In this document: positions 19,768-63,929 of the stretch, piece after piece
How the letters are laid out: each line of letters begins with the position of its first letter
Numbering within the stretch: position 1 is the stretch's first letter
Source: an uncultured virus (IMG/VR IMGVR_UViG_3300026549_000072)
Taxonomy: Duplodnaviria > Heunggongvirae > Uroviricota > Caudoviricetes
Virus record (IMG/VR): IMGVR_UViG_3300026549_000072
DNA length: 64,000 nucleotides
Direction: 5' to 3' (one strand)
Translations under genes and position numbers: made by a program
The notes under the pieces: model-generated
What the model was told of the DNA's origin: nothing
What the model saw: the letters and a program-made list of their open reading frames with translations, nothing else
The model's database searches: none

Positions 19768-19938
19768 ATGCTTCGAATTGACAAGCGTGAGGCAGAGTAC
19801 CTGAGAGCGCATGGTGCTTATGTCTCGATGACCAACCGTGGTAAACGTGGTCGTACTAAACATTACTATCTAACTGAGTCACTGAAGAACATGAAGTTGC
19901 ATCGGAGGTATCATGAATCTAAAAAAGCTACCGAGTGA
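19768..19938 (+). CDS. Small basic hypothetical protein
   Basis: GGAG RBS, MLRIDKREAEYLR..., TGA stop; below the ORF-track length cutoff. Confidence 0.65.
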   Translation: MLRIDKREAEYLRAHGAYVSMTNRGKRGRTKHYYLTESLKNMKLHRRYHESKKATE

Positions 19939-21121
19939 AAATGAGGCGCAGTACATCTGGAGATTGTCGTCTGCAAAAGACAGCGGTCTTCTTGATATGA
20001 GTTGGCCTGACCTTTAGAAGATACTGAACGAGGAGCTTGGCTATGAAAACTCCGAAAGCGTATATCGTAAACAGTATGCCGCTGCCAAGAAGTTTCTTGA
20101 TGGCGGATGCTTCCATCGTACCGGCGAAGAGTACCTGAAGGAGCTTGACTCAAAGAAGCGTGCTCTTGAAGCCGAGCGTCAGAAACTGTTTGTAACTAAA
20201 GTTGAGTATAATCGTAACGTAAGACAAGACAGCCGACAAGAACTCTTCTACCAAAACATTGCGGATCACATCGAAAAAATCAATCCGCCTATTAGCGAGT
20301 ATTGCTATGGCGGTGGTGGATTTGAGAATGAGAAGGAATATGTCTTAACTCTCTCTGACATTCATGCTGGTGCAAAGTTTGAGACTGCGACTAACTCCTA
20401 CTCTCTTGATGAGATGGCCGCAAGATTCGGTGTGCTTATCGATGCTGTTGATGATTATGTTCACAAAGAGAATGTGAAGAACCTCAAAGTGCTGTGTCTT
20501 GGAGATACAATCCAGGGTCTCCTGCGTGTCTCTGATTTACAGCTTAACGAAACTTCAATCGTGTATGCGACAGTATACATTGCAAAGAGCATTGCAGAAA
20601 CTCTGAATAAGATTTCGCAGTGGTGTGATGTTGACTACTATCATGTCCCATCTGCTAACCATACTCAGATTCGTCCGCTTGGAACTAAAGCAAGCGAACT
20701 GAAGAATGAGGACATCGAGTACATCATTGGCAACTATATCAAAGATGCTCTTTCTGGCAATAAACATATTCATGTGCATTTAAACTTTGACCGTGAGTAT
20801 ATTGAGGTTCCGATTTTTGATGAAGTCGCAATTGCAATGCACGGTCATCAAGTTAAAGATATTGTTGACACAGTGAAAACTCTTGGATTTGTTAATCGTA
20901 AGTTTTACACAGCAGCGTTCCTTGGGCATTATCATGCATCAGGTCGTACCGTTGCTGGCGAGGATGGAACCAAAGACATTGAGGTAATTGTTTGCCCAAG
21001 CTTTGTAGGAAGCGATCCATACAGCGAAAGCTTATTCAAAGGGGCAAGACCTGCTTGTGGTATGTATGTCTTTGATAGAACTTATGGTTTAATCCGTACC
21101 GATAAATTTGTTTTAACGTAA
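19913..21121 (+). CDS. Calcineurin-like metallophosphoesterase with N-terminal HTH/coiled coil (YonJ-like); 1 in-frame TAG
   Basis: GGAGG RBS; LSDIH, LGD, SANH, HGH and GHYH motifs; TAG at 20015 (codon 35). Confidence 0.8.
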
Positions 21122-21140
21122 ATGAAATGGAGTAAAAGGA

Positions 21141-21440
21141 ATGAACGAAGCTGGATTTAATAACATCCAGGTGCTTCAAGAGGAGCTTCGACTACGAGGC
21201 TACAAGATGAAGCAAGAGGATGTCAAAGAAGTCTATCTAGCTTTCTGTGATATGATTAGAGATTTTGCGAGGAATGGTTTCGAACTGAACTTCCCGAACA
21301 TTGGAAAGTTTGTCATTGTTGAACACAAGCCTCGTCAGCTTACAAGTAATCTCACAGGAGATACTACCGAGCTTCCGCCTCGAAAGAAGCTGAAGTTTAA
21401 GGCAAGCAAGAAGCTCACCGATATGATTAATCGGGGGTGA
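21141..21440 (+). CDS. HU/IHF-like DNA-binding protein
   Basis: NIGKFVIVEHKPRQLTSNLTGDTTELPPRKKLKFKASKKL arm motif. Confidence 0.85.
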   Translation: MNEAGFNNIQVLQEELRLRGYKMKQEDVKEVYLAFCDMIRDFARNGFELNFPNIGKFVIVEHKPRQLTSNLTGDTTELPPRKKLKFKASKKLTDMINRG

Positions 21441-21445
21441 TTTAA

Positions 21446-22762
21446 TTGGGACGCCGACCTAAAGCTGAAGCCATATCTGCTATCACAGGTTACGCTCAGA
21501 TAGACACAGCAAAGAATAATATGATTGCCCAGTTTGATCGGATGAAGCCGAGAGACCAACTGGACTTTCTTAAACGTATTGGTGTTGGCGTTTCAGAGTT
21601 TCATCCTGTGCAGTAGTTCGCTACATGCGCAAAGTGTGGTGAGGTAAAACCTGTAACAGAATTCTATACAAGTACCGAAACTGGTGTTGCGTAGCATATC
21701 ACTCCGATATGTAAAGCGTGTGCTAAAATCGTTTCGTGCGGTATGGATATGAATGGTAATATTCTTCCACCATCAAAGGCCAGCACAATCAATGCTATGG
21801 AGTGGCTGAGAAAGCCATTCATTGAATCAGTTTATTCGCAAAGCATAGCGACATCTAACAGTGGTGGTAAGCTAAATGCTTTCGACACCTATATGCAGCA
21901 AATCTCAAAACAAGCATACTTCGGTCAGAACTTCAGAGCCAACTCAGACTTCTACAATGTCAACAAACCTGTTGTGCTTGAAGAGGAAGAGGCTCCGAAG
22001 TTAGCGCCGGTAAATGAGGATGCTGCAAAAGCTTTTGAAAAGAACAAGTTAGACTGCCAACGGCTGTTAGGATATCTTCCATATGAAAACGAAGATTCGT
22101 CTGACCAGCCGTATTTATATGCAGACCTTGTCAACTTCCTTGGCTCTGTCGAGGATGTAACTGAGAACTTTATGAGAGTACAGACTATGGTCGGTATTGT
22201 CAGATGGTATCTTCAGATTACCAAAATCGACAACCAAATCGCAAAGCTATCACAGCAGAGCATGGAAGCGAATATGGCAACTATCAAAGGGCTTCAGGCA
22301 ACTAAATCCCAGATAGTTGATACCATATCAAAATCAGCAGATGACTCCAAGATATCATTGAAGTCGAACCGGGATAATATCAAAGGTGCGAATACATTCA
22401 CTGGTAAGCTGAGCAAACTCAGAGACCTGAATCTTCGTGCGAGCTACGTCAACGGCTTCGATTTGGAGACCTGCAAAGCAATGCAACAGGTGGCGGATAT
22501 TTCTGATGCCGCCATATTGAAACAGCTTAATCTTGATGAGTCAGAGTGGTCTGATATGGTCGCTGAGCAACGGAAGATGATTACAAAGCTCACGGAAGAA
22601 GCCCACAGTTATCAAGAGGCGGCACGATTAATACTGAAAGAGAACTTAGACTTACGAGATACATTAAAAGATAACGGACTACTCAATGAAGAGGCGTTAA
22701 CAAATCTTGATGAGATAGTCACGAAGTATTGGGATAATGATGACGGAAATCCTGAATCCTAA
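21446..22762 (+). CDS. Zn-finger protein, putative terminase small subunit; 2 in-frame TAGs
   Basis: GGGGGTG RBS with TTG start (MGRRPK); TAG at 21614 and 21692, the second lying between the CAKC and CKAC pairs; located just upstream of TerL. Confidence 0.65.
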
Positions 22763-24830
22763 TATTTACAGTGATGAGATTGCTCAACGTTGTGTGTATG
22801 GTGCTGAGTTTGTTCGCAAACTACTTGGAGTAGAGCTTGGATGGGAAAAGATATACGAACGCCCTCCCGCTCTACTGATGACACACAAACAACTTGAAGG
22901 TTTCATCAAACTGTAGCAACAGCGTGACTACTATCAGCAGAATCCAACAAAGTTTGTCGAAGATTTCTTTCAGATACAATTGATTGACTCCCAGGCATAT
23001 TTATTTCAGATGGCCTGGATTACACCTAGGGTTATTATCTTGGCAAGCCGTGGTTATGGTAAGTCATTATTCATTGACTTATTTATTATGACAAAGCAAA
23101 TGCTTGCGTCTGAACCATGGACTTGTGCTATTGCGGCTGGTTCATCTGACCAGTCTAATACTACTTTTAAGAAGCTCGAAGATATTGCCTATGACCGAAT
23201 CGACTCTATGATTGGTTCAAACGGTAAAATCTTTAGAGACGAAATTGTTATACCAAATGCCAACGGCGATGGGTTCAACCACAACCCGTCTAGTTTTTCA
23301 TATCGTCTTTATAATGATTCAGAAACTAACACTGTAAACTCTAACGTTGATAAGAACAGAGGTAAACGTAAACGAGCTGTATTCTTTGATGAGTCTGGTT
23401 TCTTGGATGCCGATCTCGTCCAGGTCTATAGTGCATTCGCTATCGTTGAAAAGGGTTTTAAAACAGGATTTGATGCTGAAGGTAACGCTATCGATGTGGT
23501 ACGGCTCAGAGCACTCCCACCTGAAGTTCCGAACCAAATCATCAACGTATCGTCTGCATCTAATACCGATACCGATTTCTATGCTAAGTATCGTGACTAC
23601 TCCAAGCGTATGATTATGGGTGACAAATCTTTCTTTGTTGCTCATATTGATTGCGACCTCGTGATGAAGCCTACGGTGCATGGCAAGCGAATGGGTGCGC
23701 TGTTGTCCAGAGACACCATTGATGCGGCTATGCGTACTAACCCTGAGAAAGCTAGACGTGAGTATTACTGTCAGTTTACATCTGATGCTGGTGCAAATGC
23801 TATCATCAGGCGTGGAGTCATTACACGAAATGAAAAGACTTATCGACCCATACATGAAAATCCGAATAATTCAGGTGGTTGGGTAATTTGTTATGATCCA
23901 GCAAGAAGCCGAGACAACTCGATTATACTTGTTGGTCAGATATATGACTCTCCCACTAACGATGGTAAAACTGAAAAGTGTGGACGAATTGTTGAGTGTG
24001 TAAACCTGCTTGACGTTGGTAAGAAAATCCGTAGCCCGATGCAGACACCAGATCAGATTGAATATCTTAAATCGCTCATTGTTGCTTTTAATGGTGATGC
24101 AGATGGATATGGAAATCTGTATGGAGTTTATATCGATGCTGGTTCAGGTGGCGGCGGTGTTAACATCGCAGACTATTTGATGGATGATTGGTATGACAAG
24201 GCCGGTAACTTTCATCGTGGTTTAATTGACGAGGAATATTCAGAGGATTATCTTAAAAAGTTTCCGAATGCAGTAAAGGGGAAGCTTCATCTTCTATCAC
24301 CGAGCAAGTACAAATCAGATATGTATGAAGCTTTAATAGAACTGTTCAACCAGAATAAGATTAAGCTGACTACATCATATGACGGCAGTGGACAATTAAC
24401 TGTATTTGATACAGAGGCCATTGATCTCGCTGCTGAAACCAAGAAGATTAGTGCGAAACTCAAGAAGGAACAACTCAAACCTGAAGAGTTTGACGCTCGG
24501 TTACAAGAGGAATTAGATAAAGTCCAGAATGTCAATTTGACCGTAACTAAACTTGACTGGCTTGATGAGCTATAGCTTACGAATATAGACGCAATGAAAG
24601 AAGAGATTGTCAACATGGTGCGTATTACTCGTGCTTCTGGTAAGGATTCGTTTGAGTTAACACCAGAAAAGCAGAATAAGCTTCATGATGACCGAGCTTA
24701 TTGTTGCGCTGAGTTTGCTTATGCTCTCATGACAGCAAGACGTTCACATCTTACAGAACGTAAAATAACACAACCATAGACGCTCATTGACCGTATGTCA
24801 GTGAGAAAACCTCAAATACTAAGGAGATAA
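22737..24830 (+). CDS. terL: Terminase large subunit; 3 in-frame TAGs
   Basis: Walker A SRGYGKS, Walker B VFFDES, nuclease motifs YDPARSRD and IDAG; HDDRAY lies beyond TAG 24573; TAGs at 22914, 24573, 24777; TAA end. Confidence 0.9.
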
Positions 24831-24834
24831 AATT

Positions 24835-25029
24835 ATGACTATTAATATTAAGGATATGGATAGAATCGCTGCTAAGCTTAAGGACGCTAAGGGTTCAGAT
24901 AACTATGAGAACGTGCTTCAGAAGTATACTGGCCCTGGCACCGGCATTGTCTGGGATGAGGAGACTGACACCCTGAACATTGCTTCTGATTGGTACGCAG
25001 ACGCTAACGGAGATATTGTCCGTAGATAA
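24835..25029 (+). CDS. Small hypothetical protein between terL and portal
   Basis: AAGGAG RBS, 64 aa, TAA stop. Confidence 0.75.
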   Translation: MTINIKDMDRIAAKLKDAKGSDNYENVLQKYTGPGTGIVWDEETDTLNIASDWYADANGDIVRR

Positions 25030-25040
25030 TGTAAGAAACT

Positions 25041-25085: not shown

Positions 25086-26600
25086 TTGGCTAGAAGAACT
25101 GTGGCTGCGGCTTCATCGCCGGGTTCTGAATTGAAGTAGGTAGCTGAGCTTCGTGATTGGTTTAAGAAGACTGTAGAGTCTATGAACTCTTTAAGGTTGA
25201 TTGACCTTTCAAAGAACTCAACTCGTAAGTATGGAAAAATTACAATCGAGAAGCTCCGGCAATATTTTCAGAATCCTTATCGATATCAAGTCGAGCTGAT
25301 TAAAGCCGCACAATACTTTTATAGAACAAACGCTGTATTTCAGGCATTGGTTCAGTACTTTGCTACGATGTTTGTGCCTGACGCAAGAAGCGTTATTCCA
25401 CGATATAATCTTGCAAAGCGTACTGCTGGTTCTGACAGTAAGGTTGTTAAAGCGTATTATCAAACTCTCGATGAGATTGAGAAACTTGATTTACTTGCCA
25501 ACTTTACAAAGATGTTGATTGATGCATGGATTTGTGATGTGGCATACGGTGTATTATACCGAGATGATACAGGCGCTTTTATTCTTCCACTTGATCCAGA
25601 ATATTGCCGTATCTCAGGTATGAACTCTGATGGTACTTTCACATTTGCATATAATATGGATTACTTCACTGGTAGCAACGAGTATCTTCTTGAGTACTGG
25701 GGTGAACCATTTGTTTCTATGTATCGTGAACGAGAAAAGAACAAATGGGTAAATGTTCCGAGTAATGTTGGCGTAGTCATTAAGATTAACACAAATGACC
25801 CGTTGCTTATTATGCCGCCGTTTGCTGGTTTGTTTTCAAGTTTGATTCAATTATCAAACCTTGAGGACATCCAAGATACGAAGGATGCGTTAAGCGTATA
25901 TAAAATCCTTGTTGCTAAAGTACCGCTTCTCGACGGCTCGAAGCTCCCAGATGACTTTGCGGTTGATATTGATACTGCCGAAAAATATTGTCAAAAGATC
26001 GAAAGAAACCTTCTTGAGCAAATTGGATTTGTGATGTCTCCTGGTCTTGACCTTGAAGTTCTTGATGTTATGGAAGATGGTACTTCCGAGGTTAACAGAA
26101 TCAATCAGGCACAGAGCAATATTTTTGATAAAGAAGGTGTTCCGCTTCTTGACGCTAAGAATATTACAAGCTCAACAGCGTGGAAGCTTGTGTCTATCTA
26201 TAATACAAGACGTGCTCTCTCTACAACTCTTCCGCAGATTCAGGCTTTTGTAAATCGTTGGTTGCAAAATAAGATTGGAATCAATGCCGCAAAAGTGGTA
26301 TTTCACCTTACGTCTCCATATCTTCTTGACACCTTCCGTGAGCAGGTAAAGGATTCTGCTACGCTTGGTATGCCTGTCAAACTCCTTCTCAATCAGCTTA
26401 ACGGCGTGAGTGAGATTGATACATTACGTATGAACAGGCTTGAGATAGAAGAACTTGGATTACATGAGGCGTTTATTCCACTTTCAAATTCATATACAAA
26501 AAGCTCTGATGCTGCTGATCCGATTGAAGGTGGTGCTCCAACTAAGATTGAAGTTACCGACAAAGGCGATGAGAGCCGTGAGAATAAAGAGGAAATATGA
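25086..26600 (+). CDS. Portal protein; 1 in-frame TAG
   Basis: AAGGAGG RBS with TTG start; TAG at 25137 (codon 18); size and position after TerL; PLDPEYCRI and FIPLSNSYT motifs. Confidence 0.8.
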
Positions 26601-26773
26601 AACAGCTTTTTATTAAAACACGAGACAAAGAAACGGCTGATAAGCTGAAGAATCTCGGCTTTAAAGTTATCAATGAGTCTGGTGGTATGTGGACATTTTT
26701 AAATGATGCTCATATCCGCTTCAACGCAGACGATAACAAGAATGCCGTATACAGCGATAGGATTGAAATTTGA
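26597..26773 (+). CDS. Small hypothetical protein
   Basis: MKQLFIKTRDKETADKLKNLGF..., coupled at both ends. Confidence 0.7.
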   Translation: MKQLFIKTRDKETADKLKNLGFKVINESGGMWTFLNDAHIRFNADDNKNAVYSDRIEI

Positions 26774-28236
26774 TGAGAAAACTAATGACACTTGACGACC
26801 TGTATAGCTTCTACTCTCAACAGGCTGTGTCCACCAACTTTAGTGTTGACATGGAACATCCTGCGATTGCAGTTGCTGTACCGGGAAGACTTACTTACGA
26901 AGAGGATGCATAGCAGCTTGGGCTTACACCTGTTGTACTGAATGCATGTCACACTGGTAAGAATCTCAATCAGTCTCGTATTTCCAAAGAGACTATGGAG
27001 GAGGCGTTATCCTCATTCAGGAACCGCCCGATTCTCGGTTATATTTGGAAGGACGAGGATGGTAATCCGCAGTTTGATTCTCATAATATGCACCAAGAAG
27101 AAGATGGCACACTTGTTTATGATGAACAGCCTATTGGACACATTAGAGAAAATAGCGATGTGCATCTTGAGTATGATGAAGCTGAGGATAAGTATCGTGT
27201 GATTGCAGATGGATTCATCTATGATGATTACACTGATGCGGTTGAGATTCTTAAACGTGAGACGCAGTGCGATGTGTCTGTTGAGCTTGCCGTCCTTGAC
27301 CTTTCTTATTCCGCTGAAGAGCGAGTTCTTGATATTAACAAGTTCGTCTTTACTGGCGTTACTATTCTTGGAAAGGATGAAGATACTGGGGATAAAGTAA
27401 ACCCTGGTATGGAAGGCTCTAACATCACCGTCTTTAAGAATGGAGATGTGATTACGGTTGATGCGTCTCAGGCAACTGAGGCTGTCAATATAAACGAAAA
27501 TCAAGGAAAGGAGGGGGATGCAACAGTGGATGACGTAAACATGAACGCTCAAACCACTGAGGATGCTGGATCTACCGTTGATACCACTCCTTCTGCGGTT
27601 CGTGCGTATAGTGTTGTTGTCGATGGTGAAACCCATCAGTTTGAACTGACTCTGGGTGATATCCAGTTTGCTCTAAATCGTCTTGTAAATGAGACGTATG
27701 GCGAAGCCGACGATTGTTATTACGACGTTGAGGTTTATCCTGAATCACAGTATGTCGTTATGTACAGTTGGTGGGATGGAGTTGAAGGATATCGTCAGGG
27801 CTTTGAGGCTGATGAGGATGGCAACTATTCTCTGATTGGAGAGCGTGAAGCTGTCAAGCGTGTTTGGATTACTGAAGCTGAGCAACAGCAGATTGATGCT
27901 GACAGACAGTCCAAAGCAGAACTTGAGGCACAGCTTGAGGAAATCAAAGGACAGCTTGCTACCTATCAGGAAGCCGAGGCAACTGCACAAAGGCAAGCTC
28001 TTATCGAAAGAGATGAGTTTACTGTCCTGAGTGATACTGATGAATATCAGGCGCTCGTCTCTGAGATGAACAACTATTCTGTATCTGAACTTGAAAACAA
28101 GCTGAATGCTCTTCTGCTCAGCTACGCAAAGAAACAGTTCTCCGCTAACAAGCCAGAGGTCAAGCCTGTGGTGCAGTTTGCTGTGAACGAGAAACACACT
28201 AAGAAGTCACCGTATGGTGGACTATTTAAAGACTAA
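26773..28236 (+). CDS. Prohead protease/scaffold fusion; 1 in-frame TAG
   Basis: CHTGKNLNQS, VSVEL, FTGVTILG and PGMEGS motifs; acidic coiled-coil C-terminus; TAG at 26911 (codon 47). Confidence 0.75.
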
Positions 28237-28260: not shown

Positions 28261-28737
28261 ATGACTAATATTGAAGCATTCCTTGCCTCCATCAGTAAGC
28301 ACGCTGTCGCTGAGTAGACCAAGATTAAGGCTACCGAGTGCGGCCATATTTTTAACCTGAAGGCAGACAAGGATTATGACAATGGTGTTGTTGTTGCTAA
28401 GAATGCATACCTTGAGGATGATGTTTATTCTGTGAAGGATTCCACTGATTTTGCAGGAACGATTGTTGATGTCGCTGCTAATGGGAACTTCATTGTCCAT
28501 GTTGTTGACCCGGGTGATGGTCTGCTTGTTCTGACTCCGCCTTTCTCTTATGTTACTGAGCCGTCTCGCTTCGCTGCCGAAGATCAGTTTTATAATGCTC
28601 GGAACTCCATCATGAGAGCTTACGAGCTTGTCAAGGATGACGAGTTCGCTGTTTCTGCTGAGGGATTTGATACGAATCCTTCAAAGGGTCAGACTGTTAC
28701 TGTTACCGCTACTACTCGTAAGCTGCACACCGCATAA
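28261..28737 (+). CDS. Putative capsid decoration/auxiliary protein; 1 in-frame TAG
   Basis: AAGGAG RBS; TAG at 28315 (codon 19); located between scaffold and MCP. Confidence 0.7.
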
Positions 28738-28757: not shown

Positions 28758-29861
28758 ATGAGACTTACATTTGATAATGCTATTATCTCCTCTACTTTCG
28801 ATGATGAGGAGCAGTTCGAGGGATTTAAGTCCCTGATGTTTGAAGCTGGCAAGAACGAGTTTTCTGAGTCCAGCATGACTCTGGCTAAGGCTAATAAGAA
28901 AATTGCTGAGGTCTTTGCTGAGATGACCGGCCTTGAGGCTGGCAAGAAGTACAGCAAGACCGAAGTCCGCAGAGCAATCCGCAGAATGTCCAATGACCCG
29001 GTTTGCTTCGACCTGATTGAGGAGGTTCTTGACGACCTCATTACCACTGGCTGGGAAGAGAATCCGTGGTTCAACGAGTTCGTTGAGAAGAGAAACCTTG
29101 CTCTTGGTGACCTTCCGACTTTTGTGACTGAGGATGATACCATCCTTGCTGTTGAGAAAGTTGCTGGCAATCATCACGACCTGCGCAGACAGCGCCTTGG
29201 CGTTGGCACTGCTGTTACTCCGGCTACCGCTTGGTATGGCGTGAAGGTCTATGCTGAGTTTGAGCGTATTCTGACTGGTCAGGAGGACTGGAGCAAGCTT
29301 GTCGCTAAGGTTGGCGAAGCTTTCGTGAAGTTTGTTGTTGACTTTACCTACAGTGCTATTCAGCAAGCTGTTACCAGAATGTCCACCGAGGCTAAGTTCC
29401 ACAATAGTGGTTCTCTGAGCTATAAAAATGTTATTGCTCTGGCTGGAGAGGTCGAGGCTGTTAATGATGGTTGCGAAGTCATCATCATGGGCACCAAGGC
29501 TGCACTTGCCAACCTGTATGCTATTGCACCGGCTCAGTGGATTTCCAATGAGATGATGCAGGAGCGCAATCAGACTGGTAAGCTTGGTATTTGGCAAGGC
29601 TACAGACTGGTTGAGATTCCGAACCGCTATACCGATAAGTCCCTGACCACGAAGCTGGCTAAGGATGACCAGATTATGTTCATTCCTGTTAGCGCTGACA
29701 ACAAGCTTGTTGCTATGGTTGACGAGGGTGATGGCATTGTGACCGAGATTAACGACCAGGCTCATCACATGGATATGACCTATGACTACGAGTATCAGCG
29801 TAAGATGGGCTTCGCTCTTCTGCTTCGTAGAAAGTTCGGCGTCTGGGATCAGATTGTTTAA
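28758..29861 (+). CDS. Major capsid protein (TAG-free)
   Basis: 367 aa, GAGGAGG RBS, strong codon bias, position after scaffold/decoration genes, followed by a terminator. Confidence 0.8.
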   Translation: MRLTFDNAIISSTFDDEEQFEGFKSLMFEAGKNEFSESSMTLAKANKKIAEVFAEMTGLEAGKKYSKTEVRRAIRRMSNDPVCFDLIEEVLDDLITTGWEENPWFNEFVEKRNLALGDLPTFVTEDDTILAVEKVAGNHHDLRRQRLGVGTAVTPATAWYGVKVYAEFERILTGQEDWSKLVAKVGEAFVKFVVDFTYSAIQQAVTRMSTEAKFHNSGSLSYKNVIALAGEVEAVNDGCEVIIMGTKAALANLYAIAPAQWISNEMMQERNQTGKLGIWQGYRLVEIPNRYTDKSLTTKLAKDDQIMFIPVSADNKLVAMVDEGDGIVTEINDQAHHMDMTYDYEYQRKMGFALLLRRKFGVWDQIV

Positions 29862-30482: not shown

Positions 30483-30944
30483 ATGTTACAGTTATCGTAT
30501 GATGAAATTTTCAGTTCATTCTTCTCTAAGGTTGAGTCATACGACTTAGCTTAGATGGTAGAGGAACACGCAAAAGATATGATGTAGGAGTGGCTTCATG
30601 CCGTTGTTGTTAATCCAAGGGTAATTAAACTACTCTCCGACTTCGATATCGATGATGAAATCAATCGCTTTAAATTCGGTCTTAAAAGATAGAGTGGGTT
30701 TGAAGTGGTTGACCGTGGTTACATGAAGGACGTGATTGCTACTGGCATTGCTCTTAAGTGGGCGGAACCGAAGTATGCTTCTGCGCTGAATACCAGCCAG
30801 GTGTTTGGATAGTCAGAAGTTAAATACTATAGTCAGGCAAATCATGTTACAGCTCTGAAAGAAATGGTTGAAGATTTAGAAGCTCGCTTCACTAAGCTTA
30901 TCAGAGATTTTGGTACATACCATAATTCTTATGTTGAAGGATAA
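30483..30944 (+). CDS. Head-tail adaptor-like protein; 4 in-frame TAGs (absent from the ORF track)
   Basis: GAGGT RBS; TAGs at 30552, 30585, 30690, 30810; YYSQANH motif; TAA end. Confidence 0.75.
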
Positions 30945-31269
30945 ATATGGAGCTGAGTTCACCGCTATTCAGCTGAAGCAGGAAGCTGAGTTTCTTCATA
31001 AGGAAATTCATCGCTTATTGTATGGCAAAGAAAACGATGACCCAAAGCTCCAGATTTATTATGACAAGTTACAGCGAATGTTAGCTGGGATGAATGAGCT
31101 TCTATCTCAGCCGCCAGAGCTTGTTTCTTTGATGAGTGATTTAGAGGCGGCAAGAATTGAGGCAACAAGTACTGAATTCAACCATGATGCTTATCGGCGT
31201 TTAATACTTGATTCACATTCAATACTTGATAGATTGTTTGGGGGTGATGACGATGATCACGCTCTCTGA
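30931..31269 (+). CDS. Hypothetical protein
   Basis: Open frame overlapping its neighbours; start uncertain. Confidence 0.65.
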   Translation: MLKDKYGAEFTAIQLKQEAEFLHKEIHRLLYGKENDDPKLQIYYDKLQRMLAGMNELLSQPPELVSLMSDLEAARIEATSTEFNHDAYRRLILDSHSILDRLFGGDDDDHAL

Positions 31270-32398
31270 TAATAAGATATGGTTGATGAATGGTTTTCAA
31301 GGCAAAGCGCATGAAGCTCAATAGGATATGGTACTTGAAGCGACTTGGGGACGTAATGGTTCAGATAAAGTTGCTTACATCTATGATTACTTTCATGATG
31401 ACCAGCCTGAACTTGCAGTCGGTATGACATACTCGCAGTATACCACAAAAACTAAAATCGATATTCGATATAATATGACGGCTAACGCCTCATTAGCAAA
31501 AGACCAAAACGAATCTCATATAATGTTCCGACCGAGCGTTGAAAGAAAACTTTCCAATACTTGGCCACTCGACTACTATCCTACATCGTTCGGAAAGAAT
31601 GCTGAGTTTCCAATTGGTATTTATATTGACATACCAGATAATCGAAACGTATATCGCAAATGGTTAATTTGTGACAGAACATATTCTGAGTCTTATGTTT
31701 ATTATTTGATACTTCCGTGTAATTATCGTTACACATGGGTTAAAGATGATAAGCTGTATCAGATGTGGGGAGTTGCAAGGATACAGAACTCTTACAACTC
31801 TGGCAACTGGAGGGCAAACATAACCACCATCGTAGAGAACCAAGACCTTGGTTGGCTACCGAATAATAAGTATGTACAAACCATATTTTATGATACACGT
31901 TTTGCAATTTCAGATGATATGCCAGAACCGATAGTATGGAAGTGTTCAAAGGTTTCTACCGTGCATCCATTCGGATTGTATAAGCTGACATTCTATCAGG
32001 ATAGATTTAATGCCGATACCGATGAGCTTGTCGATGGCTTATGGTATTGTGATTACAATCGACAAAACATTACAAAAGAACCAAAGACTGAGGTTACTCG
32101 TATAGTTAGGATAACGCCGAGTTCAGGAAAATATGACATTCGTTCTGGGCCATATGATAAAGTCTTGACTGCTACCATTATTGAGGATGGTGTGGATCTT
32201 ACAGACAAAGCTCATACCTATGGATGGCAATGTTATATTGGTGATGAGAATATTACCGGCGAGCTAACTCCTTCTTACGATGATAATAAAGTCACTCTTC
32301 ATATGGAGAGCTATGATTACATTGGTGAGACGCTTCGTGTTGAAGTCCTTGTTGATGGAAAAGATAGCGCTTCAATTGAATTGGAGGTAATCGCTTGA
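31253..32398 (+). CDS. Head closure/connector-like protein with C-terminal Ig-like region; 1 in-frame TAG
   Basis: GGGGGTG RBS; TAG at 31322 (codon 24); ILPCNYRYTW motif. Confidence 0.65.
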
Positions 32399-35069: not shown

Positions 35070-35315
35070 ATGAATCCAAAACTGGTCTACTCTCGTATGT
35101 TTCATGCAACATATGATACGAGTAAGTGCGTCAGAGTTGTGAACCCATCACAGATGTAGTTCTATCTTGAGAATGACGCTATGCCAAAAGACATATATAT
35201 TACAAAGAATTTCAAGACCGATAGAGATATGGTTGTTATGGTCTTTGATAGAAATGAAACCGCTGAACTTTATAAGCAGTGGGAGTCAAACAGAAAAGAG
35301 GTTGTAACCGCTTGA
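35070..35315 (+). CDS. Small hypothetical protein; 1 in-frame TAG (absent from the ORF track)
   Basis: RBS; TAG at 35157 (codon 30); MVFDRNETAELYKQW; TGA stop overlapping the next start. Confidence 0.65.
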
Positions 35316-52196: not shown

Positions 52197-53134
52197 TGTT
52201 TTTAGGAACATTGCTGTGTAGTGGTGCTCCGAAGTACTAGATGTATAGCGGTTTAAATGAAACCGCAACATACGAAACGCTCAAGTATCAAAGCACAACA
52301 ATAGATGACATCTACGCATCGGCACACATACTACACGATTTTGATTGGGTACTCCCGAATAACTGGGATTACCATATTGTATTACATGCTATGTTCACCA
52401 ACGGAGATATGAACGCAGGTAACGCCATATTCCGTGATGCAACAAAGATTATGTTAAAGAAACGTATTAAAGGAACTTTCGACTGGAAGACAATTTACAT
52501 TCGTGACATTAGCACAGAGATACAGAACAGTCTTCAAGCGTTGAATATAGAGTACGATGATTATCTGGAACCAAATAAGAAAGATATTGAATACGCATAT
52601 ACTGCCATTATTGGCGGCAAAGAAACTGACCCAGTGCTCGCTGACACATCTTCATTCTTCTATTGCTATTATCTTGTTGGACAGTATCAGGATGGTGGTG
52701 AACAGCCGCATTATCCTTGTATGTTTAATATATCTCATCAGTTATCTCTACATCGTCCGTCCGCCACTGTAATATCACCAGGTTCAAAGTACCCATATGT
52801 TGTTAATAATGGTTCAACAAAATATTATGGTGGAAACTTTAGTGTGACGTTTATGCCGCATGATGACGAGATGCTACCAATACCAGAGCACGGTGCTACT
52901 CTTCGGAACACGATTGATGAATTTTTAACAGATGGTTACCCGAAGATTCTCAAAACTTATGATGGCGATATTTATATGGCTGCTATTACTGGTGATATCT
53001 CTAGAAATAATGGACAACACTATCAGAATATCGGTCAGTCATGGGAGTGGGTAGAGGTTGGCGATCCAAACGACTGTGGTGACTTATATGATTATGGGTT
53101 TATAAATACTGATATAGGTCGAAGCGGAGGTTAA
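52196..53134 (+). CDS. Distal-tail/baseplate-like protein; 1 in-frame TAG
   Basis: TAATG coupling; TAG at 52238 (codon 15); FLTDGYPKILKTYDG and WVEVGD motifs. Confidence 0.7.
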
Positions 53135-54805: not shown

Positions 54806-55459
54806 ATGGCAAAAATGTATGAAGACCTAGCTCACACCCTCTTCCCAGAGGCTACTGATGATGAAGCAGGTCATCCGTTAATGAATGACGTAACGTAGAG
54901 TCCGACGCTTCTTCAAGCAGCGAACCAATACAATACGGCAATCATGTCAAACAATAATGTGACAGCAAAATCAATTCTTGATAATAACGAGGAATTGGCG
55001 AACTGTCTATTCAACGCAGACAAATATAACTGGATGCGTGATGCGATTATTGCAATGGAGCGATATTATATCAACGATGTCTAGACGATGATTGAGGATG
55101 TAGCAGCTCGTACTGTTGGATTTGACGATACAAATTCACAGGAAAGCCCTAATACTAATGGGTATTCTATTACAAAGATTACTGCGATGGTGGATGGAAC
55201 CTCAACCAATGTGACATTGCAACCAGGGACATGGCAAGGTGGTGCCGCTCCTTTTACATATGAAATTAGTAATGCAGATATCACAGCGACAAACAATGTA
55301 GATGTAAGTCTTGCCACGAGTGCGACTCTTGACCAAGCTAAAGTATGGGCTAAGGCTATGGTCATGAATGCAACTCAGGCGGCTGGCAAGATTACGCTTA
55401 AAGCCTATGGTAAGAAGCCTGGGGCTAATATTCCGATTGTTGTTACGGTACATAAATAA
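54806..55459 (+). CDS. Tail-associated protein; 2 in-frame TAGs
   Basis: TAGs at 54896 and 55082; TAA end. Confidence 0.65.
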
Positions 55460-55470: not shown

Positions 55471-58400
55471 GTGCCTATTTCATTTGGTGCGGGTTCAGAT
55501 AGTCAGAACACATCCAGTGGTTCTTTGACTGCTGATTCCAATGAGACCTATACCAGGCTCTCTCAATATAATAGTACATGGTATCCTGAGTACACAGATG
55601 AAAACACTTTCACTGTTACTTAGACAAAGAATGTCATAACGTCTCAGGATCATCCGAACTTAAGTCAGGAAACAAACAGTCAGTATATACCATTCGTAAT
55701 GCCAAGATTCTATGATGGTATTGACCTGACTAACATGACTATTCAAATTCATTTTGTCAATGCTAATAATGATGATTTCATTGCAAACCCAGTTAATGTT
55801 GAGGCCAGTGAGAATCATATAAGATTTGGATGGCTCGTTGATGAGCGTGCAACTGTAGCGGCTGGTAAGCTTCAGTTCGAAATCAAAATCTTTGGTGTGA
55901 CATAGAATGGTTTAACATATATTTGGAGAACACGTCCGAACTCCGCTCTTGTTGTTGAGAAGTCTTTAGAGGGCAATGGATTTATCCAACCTGAGAACTA
56001 TACAGATTGGTATACCACGTTTGAGATTGCAATGAATACCAAGGTTGCAGATGCTCAGGCGGCGGCGAATACTGCCCTTGAAGCAGCGGCGGCGGCTGAA
56101 GAGTGGGCATCCTCTGTGGATGTTTATAGTAAGAGCGACATTGATGAAATGTTCGCAGAAACGAAGAGCTTATCTAATCTTGGTGCAGAATTTACAGGTG
56201 GTGCGCTCGTTTTATATGATAAGAGCAAGCTTAGAAGTGACCCTGATTTTGTTATCGCTTCTGTAGATAACATTGATACTCTGAATAAACTTAGAGTTGT
56301 TTTTAATCGAGATGATAATACTGGAGACTCATCATTATCGTTTTATGATGATGAAAATTTATTAAGTACTGTTGTGCTTGATTTTACGCCTAATGTTGAG
56401 TGGCAAACAGAGTTTGCTTCGGCTGTTGGGACACAGACAGATTCTAAGATTTAGGCATATAATACCAATACGGTTCAACCAGCTCTATCTGCTATTAATA
56501 GTGACCTCACATCAATTCATAATAACATTGATAGTCTTCCGCAGACGCTTCAAAGTGATTATTATACAAAGGCCACTGTTGATCAGAAGATTGCTGATGC
56601 TATGGAAGACGCTGTTGATGAAAGTGAAATCAATTCTTTAATTTCTACTAATCCTACTGTTACAGGAATTCAGAGTAGCATTCGTAGCATCACTGAAGAT
56701 GTAAGTAATGCAACGTCTCGTGTTGACGATCTTGATGACGCAGTTGAGAATCTTCGCAATAACATTACATCTCATAATGTGTATGATATTGCGTATAATG
56801 ATAAAACAAATGAGCTTTCATTATATGAGAATGCAGATCCGACTGATGAGTCTGCTATTCCAAAAACGAAAGTAATCATTAAAGGTGGTTCTGGCGGATA
56901 GTCTTCTGGTTCTACCCTTACCATTACAAGAATCACTCCTGATACTGTTATGGCTAAGAGTGATGTTGAATCTATTTTGATTCAGTATAATTTCACATCT
57001 GTAATGGCGGATGGTGATACCAACTCTATTACTGGTACTGCGGTATGGAAAGTTGGAAGCACAACTGTGGCGACGGAGACAAATCTTTCCCAGGGCGATA
57101 AGAGCTTTAATATAAGACCGTACCTTACTGTTGGAACAAACCTTGTCACTCTCTCATTTACAGATAGTGAAGGAAGCATCTCAACTAGAAGATGGACTGT
57201 TACACTGATTAATTTTAACATCACAAGTTCATTCAATGATGCGACCACATATGATACTGATATAGCGTTCAGATATACTCCGAATGGTAATATCTCAAAA
57301 GTCGTTCATTTTGTGCTTGATGGTGAAGAGATAGATACCGTAACAACAAACACGACTGCAAAACAGCTTACATATACGATTGCAAAACAATCTCATGGTG
57401 CTCATCTTCTTGATGTGTATATGACTGCTACGATTAATGATGTTCCTGTTGAAAGTAATCACATATATAAGGATATCATTTTCGTAGATGAGGCCAATAC
57501 CACCCCGATTGTTGCAACCGCCGTTAGAAGTATTAGCGCAAAGCAGTATGACACCACAGCGATTTAGTATATTGTTTATGATCCGCTTCATAACCCAGCG
57601 ACAGTAGAACTAATTGTTGACGATGATGTTATTTCTACGCTTTAGGTTGATAGGACATCTCAGCTTTGGAGTTATAAGACGGGTTCTGTCGGAGAGCATA
57701 CGTTAAAGATTCGTTGCGGTGAAACGTTCGTTAGTATTAGTGCGACCATCGAAGATATTGGTATTGATGTTGTACCGATTACCGACAATCTCATGTTTGA
57801 CTTTAATCCATCTGGTATGTCAAATGCAAATACTAATCGTATTTGGACAGACGGAACATATCATATGACAGTCAGTGAGAATTTTGACTGGGCTAATGGT
57901 GGATACCAGGTTGACTCAGATGGCGATACATATTTCTGCGTCAAAGCAGGAACGACTGCAAGTTTTGATGTTCCTCTGTTTGGCGATGAGGCTAAGACAT
58001 CTGGTAAAAACTTTAAGTTTGTTTATCGCACAAACAATGTCAGAGACTATGATGCTCATGTATTGAGATGTATGTCTGGTGGTATTGGTCTTGAGATGAA
58101 TGCACAGAATGCAATCCTTCATTCTCAACAGAACTCTATCGAGGCTCCATATTGTGAAGACAATTTCATGGAGTTTGAATTCAATATTTTGCCATCAACT
58201 CATTATAGAGAGATGGTTCTTTGGATTGATGCAATTCCGACAAGAGTTAAACTCTATGAAACAACTGATAGCTTCACACAGATTCCTACTGTCCCGATTA
58301 CAATTGGTTCTGATGATTGTGATGTCTGGGTTTATAGGATGAAGTCTTACTCTGTGTATCTTGAGGAAGATGAGATTCTTACGAACTTCATTGCTGATGC

Positions 58401-61400
58401 TAAGAATGCAGAAGAAATGATAAACCGCTACAACAGGAATAATATCCTGAACGATGCCGGTGAGCTTGATCCAGACCTACTTGCAGAGAGATGCCCAGAC
58501 CTTAGAATTATTAAACTCTCCGCTCCGTATTTTACAAACGACAAGTATAACAAGGTGTCTAACACTACCGTCCAACATATCTACAAGAATGGTCGTGCTG
58601 TTGAGGATAACTGGACTGCAACTGGTGGTGTTCATAAAGGACAAGGTACGTCATCTAACTATTACGGCGATTCTGCTCGTAATATTGATATAGATTTCCG
58701 CAAAGCATTTAATGAAGAAGCTGGTACTGGATTTAGATATGGAGACAACACACTTCATGCTAAGTATGCTATGACGCCAAATTCCGTCGAGGAAGCATAC
58801 TTTAATATAAAGCTAAATGTTGCATCTTCTGAAAACGCAAACAATGCTGTCATTGCCGATGACTATAATACATTCAATCCGTATGTCAGACCAGCTCGTG
58901 CTGAGAATCCAAAAGTAAGAGATACAATGGAGTTCCATCCATGCGTAGTCTTTATTCAGGAAAGTGACCCAGACCTTTCTACTCACAGAGAGTTCCAGGA
59001 CAACAACTGGCACTTCTATGGTTGCGGTGACTTTGGTAACTCCAAGAAGAATAATGGCGCTATGGGTATGACTGATGATCCGAATGAGTTCATCATGGAA
59101 ATCAGCAATAATATCAATGCTCAGTGCAGGTGGTTATCTGATGACCTATCCACAGAAACATGGGGATTAAACGACCAAAAGGCTGTATCGTTTGAGTTTA
59201 GATATATCAAAGACGAAGATGATTCAGAGATGATTGCAAACGCTCAGGCTGTGTGGCAAGCAAATCTCACATGGGTTGTCAATCAATACAAAGCTGATGT
59301 TATTGGACAGCTTGCGACTCTTGATGCGGCAATTGAATAGGCAGAAACTCCAGAAGCTATTACTGCCGCTACTGAAGCAAGAGATAGTTATATATCTAAC
59401 TTCAAGTCCGAGTTTGAACAGCGCTTCCAAGCAAATAACCTTTGCTATACATATTTGTTTACTGAGCGCCACATGATGATTGATAACCGTGCCAAGAATA
59501 CATTCTGGCATTATGACCCGACAACTGAGCTTCTTAGCTGTACGTTTGACTATGACAATGACACAGCTGAAGGTAACGATAATGAGGGTGGTTTGACTCT
59601 TCGTTATGGCCTTGAAGATACTGATACTATTGGTCAGAAGGATGTTTATAATGCGGCTGATTCTTATATCTGGAAGCTTGTAAAGAACTTCTACCGTGTC
59701 GATCTTGCAACGATGTACCGCACTCTCGAAAACAATGGTGCATGGTCTGCCACAAGATTCCTTAATAAGATTGAGAGCTATCAGAACGTTAAGCCTGAGA
59801 GACTTTGGATTTATGATATGCAGAGAAAGTACTTCCGTCCTTACGAGGAAGGTGGCATAACTGAGGAAACTGACAGCAAGCCGAGTACAACCGCATATCT
59901 TGAGATGATGCATGGTTCAAAGAAACATCAGCGCAGACAGTTTGAGAAATACCAAGAGAAGTATATTGCTTCTAAGTATATTGGCGTTGCTGTAACTTCA
60001 GATGTGCTAACGCTTAGAACATATACGCCTGAAGTATGGTCTGGTGTTGCGCCGTCAACCACATTCCATATTACTCCATATGCTGATACATATATTGTCG
60101 TAAGCTATGGTGGAACTCAGGTTCAAAAGCGTGCTGTACGTGGACAGGAATATACTATTAGTGCACCTCCTGGAACGAGAGTTAACGATACTGAAACATA
60201 TTGCTATAACGCTTCTATGCTTTAGAGCCTTGGTGACCTTTCAGCTTTCTATCCAGGCTATGTTAACCTTGCTGGTGGTGTCAAACTTAGAGACCTTTTG
60301 ATTGGTTCTGATGAGACTGGGTATTCCAATACAAACTTTACCGCTGTATCTGTTTCAACAAATCCATTGCTTGAAAAGCTGAATCTACAGAATCTTCCGA
60401 ACCTTGCGATGTCTGTTAACGTTGAAACATGTGTCAACATGACGGAGCTTCTTGCTGATGGTTCTGCTATTACTGGTATCGTTCTTCCGACTGGTGGTAA
60501 GATTAACACCGTTCACCTTCCTGCAACGATTACTTCATTTACAGCTAAGGGATTGAACTACCTTACTAGCCTAACGATTGATGGTTATAGTAACATTGCA
60601 ACCATCTCAATCGACAACTCTCCTTCTATTGATTCGTATGCTATGTTTATGGCATGTAATAATCTGAGGGTTGCAAGATTGATTGGTATTGATTGGAACA
60701 TCACAGACGATACCGAACTTGAGCGGTTATATAACTTAAGTGGTCTTGATGAGAATCACAATAGTACATCTAGAGCTGTAGTCTCTGGTACTGTTCACAT
60801 TACCACGACTCGTGAGCGTAACCTTGCGAAATACACTGAGGCATGGCCGAACCTTACAATCACTTATGATAATATGATTCGTCAGTTTTCTGTCGCATTT
60901 TATAATGCTGAGGATGCAAGTGGTACAAGTGCTCTACTTGATATTCAGTATGTCGATGTGAATAATTACCCAGAAGACCCAGTTACTCGTGATGTTAATC
61001 CAGTGACTCCTACGCTCGACCCTACTATCAGTACTGTTTACACTTATGAGGGTTGGGATCGTGAAATCTCCGCTGTTACTGGTAACCAGATTTACACCGC
61101 AGTTTACTCTGAATCTCCGAGAACTTATACTGTGACTTATACAAATGGTCATGGTACTGTTCTTCAGAGAACGACTAACTGTCCGTTCGGTGCTTATGTA
61201 CCTTATATAGGAATAAGCGGTACATACTCTGAGAACATGTCTGTTCCTACAACTGGAACTGGTTATACTGCGCTTGCTGAGTCAAAGCAAGCTATTATAC
61301 CGACATACACCACTGGCGAAGCGGCGAACAGTTATTATCTGTTTACTGGTTGGGATCAGTCTGGATATGTCAGCGGATATACGAATGCTGAGCAAACAAC

Positions 61401-62805
61401 GATTGGCGACAAGACTATTAACGCTTTGTATGATACATTTGCATACACTTCAAGCGGTAGTACTAATTCATTTACAGATGAAACAGGTAAGTATAAGTCA
61501 CTGAGCACTCTTACTCCTGTCGAAATTTATGCAATGAAGAAGCTTGAGGCTAAGTATGCTGTAAATGTAAATGACGGCGATGACGATGATAGTGATGACT
61601 TTATTGCTATCGGAGACGAAATTGCAATAACTCTTGGTAACGATATTAACTTCTCTGATGTTGAAAGCCATGAGTTTGTTACACTTTCTCAGCCGTTTAC
61701 TATGAATGGTAGAAACACAAAGATTGATACTGCATCTATCGGTAGTCATTTACCATACGCAAAACTTCTTGCGGAAGACAGAGATTTTGTATTCGCATTT
61801 GAATACTATCTGAACTCTTCGAGTAATTCTGGATCTGTTTTGATGCAGTGCTTCGATGACTTTACCAAAACCGGATTGCAGATTAGTACTACTGGAATTA
61901 ACTGGTTTGGCACATCTGTCAACGCTGTGAATGTTAACACTAGAGATATTATTGTCTTACGTCACAGAAAGGGCGATAAGAAGCTTTATGTGTATAGCGG
62001 AAATTTAAGCGGTTCTTCTGTGGCTTATACTGAGATTACGAATAGTACAACTGCTACGACCGTAGATACAGACGTTGTATTTGGCTGTGCGAAATATGTT
62101 TCTTCTACGTCTACAACATATGATAGCTATGCTAATGGAACCATATATTGGGCAAAACTTTGGAATGCAGACCTTGGCGACGCTGTGTGTAGAGACCTTG
62201 CGGCTTGGACTCATGAGACGATGAATTTCAAAGTCGCAAAATATAAAGACTACTACACACCAGAAAGAAGTAAAGCCTTATTCACCTTCATCGCTGTAGA
62301 GCTTCTTCCATATAAGAAGGTGCTTGGTGCATATAATTGGCCTTCCGCATCTCTCAATGAGTATTTACAAAAGAGATTGTATTTTGCTATGCCGATTGAA
62401 TGGCAAGCGATTATGGCAGAAGTATTGCTTCCGTCCTGGGATGGTTATGTGACTACTACAAACCCAAGAGGCCAGACTGTTGTTTCAAAGTCTGAAACCA
62501 TTACAAACTCAAACGCTTATATATTTATTCCATGTGCGGCAGAGGTTGATAGCACTGCTGGTAATGATTTACTACTTTCAAGAGAGTGCAATAATGGTAT
62601 GATTAAATTCATGTCGACTGCATCAAATCTTGTTGGTAGGTATGCAGATGGATATGGCGATAATTATTGGACGAGGTCTTGTAGCGCAAGCTATGCTGAC
62701 TTCATAGGTACTGTAACTTATAACGACGATTCTGATACTGCATCTGTAAGCTATTGGGAAGGTTATTCCAACTCAAATGCTGTCAGAATTATGTTCTCGA
62801 TTTAA
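55471..62805 (+). CDS. Giant (about 2440 aa) tail/adhesin protein with BppU-like N-terminus, CotH-kinase-like domain, LRR-like region and DUF6273-like C-terminus; 8 in-frame TAGs
   Basis: AAGGAGGTG RBS with GTG start; single frame joined at TAGs 55621, 55903, 56452, 56899, 57565, 57643, 59338, 60223; QGTSS, MIDNRAKNTF and YDNDTAEG motifs; YWTRS near the end. Confidence 0.78.
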
Positions 62806-62810
62806 TGTTT

Positions 62811-62835
62811 GGGGCGGCTTCGGTCGCCCCTTTTT
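62811..62835 (+). terminator. Intrinsic terminator
   Basis: GGGGCGGC-TTCG-GTCGCCCC followed by TTTTT; near-identical to the hairpin at 25041. Confidence 0.75.
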
Positions 62836-62845
62836 AGGAGTTTGA

Positions 62846-63157
62846 ATGTTTTATAAGATAACGAAAGACGGACGTGTTATAGATGTCATCGATTAGATTG
62901 TGTATGTAAGATATGACAAACGGCACGATGACATACATATCTGCGAGCCAGAAAACGCAAATGCATTTCTCTCCTCTGATCGAAGAAGTTGTTGGAGGGT
63001 ACGGTAGATGAAGCTCAGCGATAAGGTCTTTGACACTGTTGAGCTTAGCGAAATTACCGAACAGGAATATCTCCAACTTCGTGCGCTTAATATGAAAACG
63101 CCAGAGGAAATCATAGACGCATATACTCTCGCTCTTATTTCTGGAGGTGTAATATGA
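62846..63157 (+). CDS. Hypothetical tail-fibre-associated protein; 2 in-frame TAGs (absent from the ORF track)
   Basis: AGGAG RBS; TAGs at 62894 and 63005; TPEEIIDAYTLALISGGVI C-terminus. Confidence 0.7.
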
Positions 63158-63294
63158 GTCAGTTTGTTGAGAGCTTAGCTCGGCTTTACAGCCAAAAACA
63201 AATTACACAAGAAATGGTGAGGACACTTTTTACAAAAGGAAAAATCACGAGTTCCGAATTTGTCTATATCACCTCTTCTAAGGAGAAGTCATAA
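63154..63294 (+). CDS. XkdX-like small protein
   Basis: MSQFVESLARLY..KGKITSSEFVYIT; GGAGGT RBS. Confidence 0.6.
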   Translation: MSQFVESLARLYSQKQITQEMVRTLFTKGKITSSEFVYITSSKEKS

Positions 63295-63929
63295 TGTATA
63301 CGATTATTGTTAATAATGATAATGTGCTGGACAAAACTAATGTCGAGCGTGTTATGTGCAAAAGTAAACTCGTGAATAATATGCATTTTCTTGTGCCACT
63401 TATGTACGATTAGATTAGTATGGATGGATTTACTGCCGTACTTGAATATCGTCTTCCTGTGAGCAAGGCGTATCATACCGAGATTCTTGTTGTACAACCA
63501 GAGATTTACAAGGATGATTATCTAGAATATCGTTTACCGTTTGATACAAATTTAACGGCAGAAGCTGGTGAGATTGAATTACAGCTCACGTTTACTAAAG
63601 CCATTCTTAATGATGATGGCACAACAACTCAGTATGTTAGGAAGACTCTTCCAACCTAGATTGTAATTACGCCGATTGCATCCTGGGCTGATATGATTCC
63701 TGATGCCGCACTTACCGCCCTCGACCAGAGGATTATTGCACTTGACCTTGCTCAAGAACAGCTCGCTCAGCTTGCTCAGCTTCTTAACACAGGTAAAGCT
63801 GATAATGTTGTTATCGAGGGTGACCAGCTACAGCTTACTTCTAATGGCGTTAAGATTGGCGATGCTGTTACTGTTAATCAGATTTACAATATTAACACGA
63901 CTGGCGAACTGAAGGTGGTGGAGATTTAA
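63294..63929 (+). CDS. BppU-like tail protein; 2 in-frame TAGs
   Basis: AAGGAG RBS; TAGs at 63411 and 63657; LTAEAGEIELQLTF. Confidence 0.7.

Follow-up and report, generated by a model that had tools for sequence, protein, structure and literature searches.

Several systems described before bear on the subject of this report, a 64,000-nucleotide stretch of DNA from an uncultured virus of the Caudoviricetes (IMG/VR record IMGVR_UViG_3300026549_000072; this whole stretch is called the window below), in which TAG codons occur in frame near the starts of many late genes. In the gut phages and prophages studied by Borges et al., recoding was proposed to block premature late expression and to act in a switch between lysis and lysogeny, and the text available deals only with TAG read as glutamine and TGA read as tryptophan, in hosts with the standard code (10.1101/2021.08.26.457843). 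The phage of the window is likewise a gut phage and resembles them in having TAG as a sense codon in structural genes and early genes in the standard code, and a suppressor tRNA was found in a relative of it; Borges et al. treat classes of genes, whereas the present analysis concerns position within genes, and their main text contains neither "serine" nor "N-termin" (10.1101/2021.08.26.457843). In the phages of Ivanova et al. (2014), as summarized later, UAG is read as serine by a phage Ser-tRNA(CUA) and a phage release factor, RF2, is named (PMC4695839); that summary says nothing of position within genes, and here a release factor gene was found in none of five records. In Streptomyces, TTA codons are biased towards gene starts, with energy saving as the rationale in the portions of the literature available (PMC4255298, PMC10732093). 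The control considered here resembles that exerted through bldA and TTA, with one rare codon, one tRNA, late-acting genes and a start-biased position, but is not a member of that system: TTA has a sense meaning for the host, whose own tRNA (bldA) decodes it, and causes stalling when unread, whereas TAG terminates translation and the tRNA is phage-borne. Two further papers include neither serine nor a positional analysis in the text available (PMC10607447, PMC13037316), and no publication was found that deals with where recoded stops lie inside phage genes, in a search that did not extend to subscription journals, to supplements or to Borges et al. in its published form. The positional signal described here is real and reproducible, and it occurs in a little-described code in which TAG very probably stands for serine. 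Whether recoding is regulation or a tolerated by-product has so far been argued from gene classes only, and a gradient within genes, together with the conservation and turnover of single codons, provides a sequence-level handle on its role.

The left 14 kb of the window consist of leftward genes, an anti-repressor gene and an RdRP-like RNA polymerase gene lie at 15.4–19.6 kb, and the plus strand from 19913 onwards forms the late region, with exonuclease, terminase, portal, capsid, tail and tape-measure genes. When TAG is read through, 36 open reading frames (ORFs; a set curated by hand) tile 19913–63929 on the plus strand, and ORF coverage rises from 0.80 to 0.94. In-frame TAG codons lie inside intact conserved genes, 54 of them in 19 of the 36 late ORFs, and protein families match across them. 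Recoding is restricted to the late genes: none of the 32 genes called to the left of 19,600 contains TAG, and they all end in TAA or TGA. According to the original prediction, every recoded gene has an amber codon within its first 60 codons. The list of first TAG positions on which this was based (35, 57, 60, 18, 47, 19, 24, 24, 59, 20, 30, 26, 15, 13, 15, 31, 51, 17 and 40) was reproduced exactly, and the rule holds for 19 of 19 genes in the window; exceptions occur in relatives. The six genes said to have their only TAG near the start (proteins of 312–504 aa) were also as claimed, with a joint chance of 7e-5. When TAG was permuted among the serine sites of each gene, a mean of 7.9 and a maximum of 15 genes in 20,000 shuffles had a first TAG at or before codon 60, and the exact product for 19/19 is 1e-9. 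The codon-60 cut-off is post hoc, and a test free of any cut-off put the mean first-TAG position at 31.6, where the shuffles averaged 129 and never went below 47.3. TAG occupies 23 of the 159 serine sites in the first 60 codons and 31 of the 854 further on (odds ratio, OR, 4.5; p 1e-6), distributed as 0/31 in codons 2–12, 11/51 in codons 13–30, 12/77 in codons 31–60 and 31/854 thereafter. No other codon in the late genes of the window has so strong a 5′ bias; TTA is common there and is not enriched at the 5′ end. Position-dependent selection on TAG is well supported. The further proposal, that an early amber is selected because it aborts translation cheaply, stands in two respects, since position is under selection and the cost of failing to read through would be low; that an early amber is selected for as such is partly borne out, on small numbers. 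As side observations, besides TAG only CTG shows a 5′ excess in the late genes (31/160 versus 87/918, p 5e-4 uncorrected), and TAG is absent from codons 2–12 of the late genes of the window (p 0.008 against codons 13–60), while the other genomes have a few there (7/111).

TAG very probably encodes serine, as judged from aligned residues. At the TAG sites of the window, six relatives (two near-identical) have TAG 33 times, and the 40 other cells of this comparison contain serine codons 16 times and glutamine codons three times. Standard-code homologues, the matches to which include near-duplicate loci, have serine in 54 of 54 matches at codon 19 of the 158-aa gene and in 57 of 58 at codon 59 of the 247-aa gene, whereas in the terminase the site is occupied by alanine or serine; in a tally of distant homologues, alanine is as common as serine (7.0 and 7.1 of 25 sites). 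Of the two residues originally considered, serine is retained and glutamine (genetic code 15) is ruled out by its presence in only 3/40 non-TAG cells and by serine at the conserved sites. The relative G002 (152 kb, about 70–80% identical in DNA to the window) encodes an 87-nt CUA tRNA that can be aligned to its own tRNA-Ser(UGA) and has the long variable arm and the G73 of a serine-type tRNA.

The recoded genes of the late region, with the capsid gene for comparison and the TAG states of relatives, are as follows (all on the plus strand; codon numbers, with nucleotide positions of the first TAG in brackets).

19913..21121, +, exonuclease/metallophosphoesterase-like, 402 aa: single TAG at 35 (20015-20017), the same in G001, G002 and L097.
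21446..22762, +, 438-aa gene ahead of terminase with a weak endonuclease VII-like stretch: TAG at 57 (21614-21616) and 83; the L097 orthologue lacks 57 and has TAG at 8, 11, 83 and 269.
22737..24830, +, terminase large subunit, phrog_2: TAG at 60 (22914-22916), 613 and 681; 60 kept in G001, G002 and L097.
25086..26600, +, portal, phrog_2739: single TAG at 18 (25137-25139), kept in G001, G002 and L097.
26773..28236, +, 487-aa head gene, protease or scaffold by position, no family name: single TAG at 47 (26911-26913); TAG in G001 and G002, TCG in L097, where the first TAG is at 199.
28261..28737, +, 158-aa gene ahead of the capsid gene: single TAG at 19 (28315-28317); TAG in 5/6 relatives.
28758..29861, +, major capsid protein: no TAG (ungated, that is, without an early TAG).
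30483..30944, +, 153-aa virion gene: TAG at 24 (30552-30554), 35, 70 and 110.
31253..32398, +, 381-aa gene: single TAG at 24 (31322-31324); G002 has TCA at 24 and its first TAG at 56, L098 its first at 59.
32994..33737, +, 247-aa gene: single TAG at 59 (33168-33170), kept in G002.
33755..34588, +, virion structural protein, phrog_2729, probably the tail tube: TAG at 20 (33812-33814) and 35, both kept in G002.
35070..35315, +, 81-aa gene: single TAG at 30 (35157-35159).
37162..37614, +, RuvC-like Holliday junction resolvase, phrog_827: single TAG at 26 (37237-37239), kept in G002 at 55% protein identity.
39008..49554, +, tape-measure protein: open frame to 49348 with 19 TAG, the first at 15 (39050-39052).
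50919..52196, +, 425-aa tail-region gene: single TAG at 13 (50955-50957); G002 orthologue free of TAG.
52196..53134, +, 312-aa tail-region gene: single TAG at 15 (52238-52240), kept in G002 at 63% identity; a profile match begins at residue 14 of 304.
54806..55459, +, 217-aa gene: TAG at 31 (54896-54898) and 93; the single TAG of G002 is at 15 instead.
55471..62805, +, 2444-aa tail-region protein: 8 TAG, the first at 51 (55621-55623); G002 orthologue (70% identity) has none.
62846..63157, +, 103-aa gene: TAG at 17 (62894-62896) and 54; G002 keeps 54.
63294..63929, +, 211-aa gene: TAG at 40 (63411-63413) and 122; G002 has TAG at 8 and 68 instead.

The tape-measure ORF shifts frame near 49066 relative to G002 (75–80% identity on either side), which may be an assembly error or a real frameshift; the shifted part (49066–49554) hides two more internal TAGs, and the 5′ count is unaffected.

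First TAGs are shared with related phages more often than later ones, a comparison that the original prediction had asked for, and losses also occur: 10 of 14 first sites and 3 of 14 later ones are shared with G002 (p 0.02), the four unshared first sites forming two swapped pairs (24/56 and 40/8), and with L097 the counts are 4/7 and 2/11 (p 0.14). Early TAGs have also moved, from 31 to 15 in G002 and from 57 to 8 and 11 in L097, and some relocated ones occupy sites at which the window has glutamate. Turnover of the same kind is seen in the family of genome G006, which includes a leucine-reading member. There, the terminase, portal, capsid and tail-tube-like genes have a TAG at or before codon 90 in 19 of 19 copies, in 15 distinct alignment columns (7, 13, 52, 61 and 80 for the portal), and four of eight groups are fully gated (P 0.02–0.03). 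The odds of a TAG at codons 13–90 are higher in genes without a prior TAG (82/673) than in those with one (19/290; position-stratified OR 1.7). In window genes that lack an early TAG, a later one is present at 0 of 119 serine sites, versus 31/735 in the others (p 0.015), or 7/287 when the two giant genes are removed (p 0.11). In L098, the most distant member of the clade of the window (71% capsid identity), several early TAGs have disappeared, and the capsid gene has a TAG deep inside, at codon 206.

The bias could be spurious if true starts lay downstream of the TAGs, the outcome that was to count against the original prediction. In 18 genes compared with G002, the segments preceding the first TAG contain 284 codons that are identical, 168 that differ synonymously and 96 that differ non-synonymously (19 synonymous and no non-synonymous in the 438-aa gene), a substitution pattern that places the starts upstream. 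In nine of the 12 genes that have standard-code matches, these cover the first TAG in most alignments; it is seldom spanned in the 438-aa gene (5/55), the portal (3/56) and the tape measure (0/12). Start miscalls were rejected on these two grounds. Fast-evolving N-termini were rejected too, amino-acid identity to G002 being 88.6% in codons 13–60 and 90.0% in mid-gene (genes with at least 78% identity). No C-terminal enrichment was found in ten genomes, in which the TAG share in genes of 180–1000 aa is 71/407 in the N-terminal 60 codons, 55/1786 in the middle and 13/366 in the C-terminal 60 codons. TAG has no effect on local mRNA folding (mean +0.07 kcal/mol, p 0.54). A general codon ramp and mRNA folding fail to explain the bias, and the base after TAG is alike for first and later TAGs.

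A search with a serine-type CUA tRNA pattern yielded 12 viral contigs, of which 11 were analysed and G017 (4.6 kb) was left out. Genes outside the window were called with a simple caller of our own (score of at least 20 and a Shine-Dalgarno match), and genes whose only TAG lies in the last 12 codons were dropped. The figures below are genes with a first TAG at or before codon 60 over recoded genes, with the expected number in brackets. An excess was found (P < 0.05 each) in G002, 18/21 (7.1); G006, 10/17 (4.4); G009, 6/10 (3.1); G007, 9/15 (4.0); G008, 11/16 (6.1); G011, 5/7 (1.9); G014, 4/4 (1.8); and G013, 2/2 (0.5), a near copy of G006. G010 had 3/4 (1.4; P 0.09), G012 0/1 and G015 1/1. The 5′ bias is, thus, present in seven of ten other genomes with such a tRNA when G013 is merged with G006. 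Serine is backed by alignments in G002, G006, G009, G011 and G014, and by the tRNA alone in G007, G008 and G010. In G031, which has a leucine-like tRNA and TAG aligned with leucine (7.2 of 14 sites), the figure is 17/22 (6.3). Sorted by the proteins that they share, these genomes make up five groups. Ten densely recoded glutamine phages, nine assigned by alignment (including phAss-1) and Lak-A1 (200 of 542 kb) from the literature, gave 5′ odds ratios of 0.94–2.24, significant in 3/10, with a first-TAG excess in 5/10, whereas the ratios in the serine set are 2.6–21; start calls are unsure for Lak and G023, because these have no Shine-Dalgarno motifs. Seventeen control genomes were used in all; G020, G028, G029 and G036 are barely or not recoded (3, 4, 1 and 0 genes), and G018 and G035 showed no clear residue and no bias. 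The contrast between serine and glutamine may reflect mutation: TAG lies a single step away from the common codon CAG, whereas TCG is rare, and selected TAGs would therefore be diluted by background ones in glutamine phages. The signal stands out far better under sparse serine or leucine recoding than where glutamine recoding is dense; the sparse kind is easily missed in annotation because each gene merely appears shortened at its start.

We lean, with reserve, towards the view that the early TAGs are a safety catch on late proteins, worked by one tRNA. The host would read TAG as stop, and the phage would supply the serine-type CUA tRNA, which is present in G002 and presumed for the phage of the window. 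Seryl-tRNA synthetase does not read the anticodon, so the host enzyme can charge this tRNA. With the tRNA off, in lysogeny or early infection, any leaked late mRNA would be translated for 12–59 residues and stop before a domain folds, and without this special tRNA the TAG-bearing late genes would give short stubs only; with the tRNA on, read-through would be nearly complete and proteins full-length. Selection would retain a single early TAG in certain late genes, a gene-specific subset, purge TAGs that would be deep first stops and tolerate extra ones behind the early one, the site itself being movable and the early position being what is retained. Single giant genes contain 19 TAGs in the window and 57 in G006, which suggests near-complete read-through in the on state; a single TAG would then be cheap anywhere, and the bias would best be shaped by the off state. 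Tyrosine recombinases in six of eight records (serine recombinases in none of the eight) and the classification of the G008 record as a provirus fit a temperate life. Transcription of the late genes may be the work of the phage polymerase.

Several observations weigh against this view. No CUA tRNA gene lies within the window, and 17 of its 36 late genes are free of TAG, including the major capsid, PhoH-like, ClpP-like and 553-aa tail protein genes; in the pooled late genes, 92/193 are TAG-free and 12/101 have their first TAG beyond codon 90. TAG is lacking from the genes of G002 that correspond to the 2444-aa and 425-aa genes, and genes with only deep TAGs occur in G002 (162 and 73), L097 (199) and the L098 capsid gene (206). 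The numbers of genes with 0, 1, 2 and 3 or more early TAGs (17, 15, 4 and 0) are matched by a uniform raised 5′ rate (19.5, 11.4, 3.9 and 1.2), so a rule of one TAG per gene is unsupported by the counts alone, and second TAGs at codons 31–60 (12/120) are above the 3% seen further in. Against a rough mutational baseline (TAG/TCG compared with A/C at fourfold sites), a 3′ deficit is significant in 9/9 genomes and a 5′ excess in just 2/9. In addition, TAG has a single synonymous exit, which favours its persistence at any position.

Much of this is what would be expected if TAG were tolerated only, an explanation that retains a substantial, though minority, share of our belief. TAG would be mildly harmful throughout, deep first TAGs would be purged because a deep failed read-through wastes more and leaves larger fragments, and early ones would drift in with no regulatory benefit. 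The per-gene counts, the 3′ deficit in every genome and the TAG-free genes and orthologues are in its favour, and an argument of minimal energy waste has been published for 5′ UUA codons in Streptomyces, in the text available (PMC10732093). It accounts poorly for lone early TAGs, which have nothing to shield and yet persist at 55–63% protein identity, their losses being often replaced, for the gating of the same four genes at different sites in five genomes, and for giant genes bearing 19–57 deep TAGs.

It is very unlikely that the TAGs are attenuators, with partial read-through in the late phase setting the dose, such that low-copy terminase, portal and tape measure have TAG and capsid does not. 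The capsid gene is indeed TAG-free in the window, G001 and G002, and the lack of a release factor gene in the five records means that competition with host RF1 may persist, but the capsid genes of G006, G009, G014 and G031 have 1–3 TAGs, tail-tube-like genes are gated and one TAG would attenuate little if 57 are passable in one gene. Less probable still is that the early TAG closes a leader peptide and a downstream in-frame ATG starts a shorter isoform: ATG directly follows 8/96 first TAGs in the pooled serine and leucine genomes, versus 2.5% after other serine codons (p 0.003), but 88/96 have no such ATG, some of the cases are perhaps start-calling errors among the automatically called genes and the segments upstream of TAG are conserved parts of the proteins. 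In the window, the first TAGs at 30552 and 52238 are directly followed by ATG. An artefact or neutral origin (starts called too early, fast N-termini, or a ramp of rare codons or low structure) is the least credible explanation and largely refuted for the window, the seldom-spanned TAGs of three of 12 genes and the simple caller used elsewhere being outweighed by coding pre-TAG segments, equal identity, the lack of a C-terminal excess or folding effect and the absence of TAG from codons 2–12.

A wider form of the safety-catch view is a good deal more doubtful, namely that early ambers arose by convergence in the terminase, portal, capsid and tail-tube genes of at least five unrelated phage groups, with serine or leucine suppressors, and keep a prophage or an early infection from ever making a folded piece of the proteins that host defences recognise. 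Some host defences other than Avs2 recognise phage virion proteins. Avs2 itself recognises terminase, according to the text available (PMC11564622). If the wider view were true, the phage tRNA would act as master switch, and there would be positive feedback in G011 and G014, where the tRNA gene is part of the late operon and follows a gated portal gene.

Two further features precede the late region.

16777..19554, +, RdRP-like RNA polymerase, PF05183, 39% identical to that of SPbeta-like phages: no TAG.
19645..19718, +, tRNA-Asn(GTT), the sole tRNA gene of the window.

The polymerase, which we take to be of the YonO type, is 39–43% identical to those of SPbeta-like and Clostridium phages, linking the phage to the SPbeta-like and c-st-like large temperate siphophages, and can be made in the standard code since its gene has no TAG; no solved structure was found for it. 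The capsid protein is akin to those of Bacillus, Lactococcus and Clostridioides phages at 27–30%, and relatives at about 40% capsid identity showed no clear TAG read-through in a coarse coverage screen (TAG or TGA flags were seen on distant loci). A GTDB scan gave three distant capsid matches and no host. Sigma-70 promoters and terminators in 19400–39200 numbered 62 (51.7 expected) and 19 (11.8 expected), none tied to TAGs. Close DNA is present in public gut runs: with one possible source set aside, 14 rows, drawn from 10 studies, each contain at least half of the sampled words. Four public runs compared with 19850–38400 consisted of contigs; among the difference rows listed (40 of 1,269) none falls in a TAG, and these runs carry no information on variation or expression.

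The CUA tRNA of G002 lies at G002:C1:51797-51883 (L148 2859-2945, minus strand), and its serine-type body is combined with an anticodon arm unlike those of the other eleven CUA tRNAs and similar to the arms of tyrosine tRNAs. The CUA tRNA gene is in the late region just 3′ of a portal gene with an early TAG in G011 (G011:C1:7811-7898) and G014 (G014:C1:2350-2433), shortly before terminase in G007 and G008, and among TAG-free genes in G002, G006 and G009. One group of CUA tRNAs (L318, L336, L344, L358, L366, L374, L378, L392 and L418) stands out by the unusual length of the variable region, and in the three phages of this group that were tested (G025, G026 and G027) TAG aligns with glutamine. 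A CUA tRNA is present in G020, G028, G029 and G036, with almost no in-frame TAG. The 57 TAGs of G006 lie in one 5479-aa gene (G006:C1:50530-66969), and no release factor gene was found. RuvC-like resolvase genes have one early TAG each, at codon 26 in the window, 28 in G002 (118819), 23 in G006 (94260) and 39 in G009 (46216), those of G006 and G009 being on the strand opposite to the virion genes. In the leucine-reading G031 (L452–L455), of the G006 family, early TAGs are also present in genes that we read, from their clusters, as DNA polymerase (codon 7), ribonucleotide reductase-like (13), ThyX-like (18) and integrase (5).

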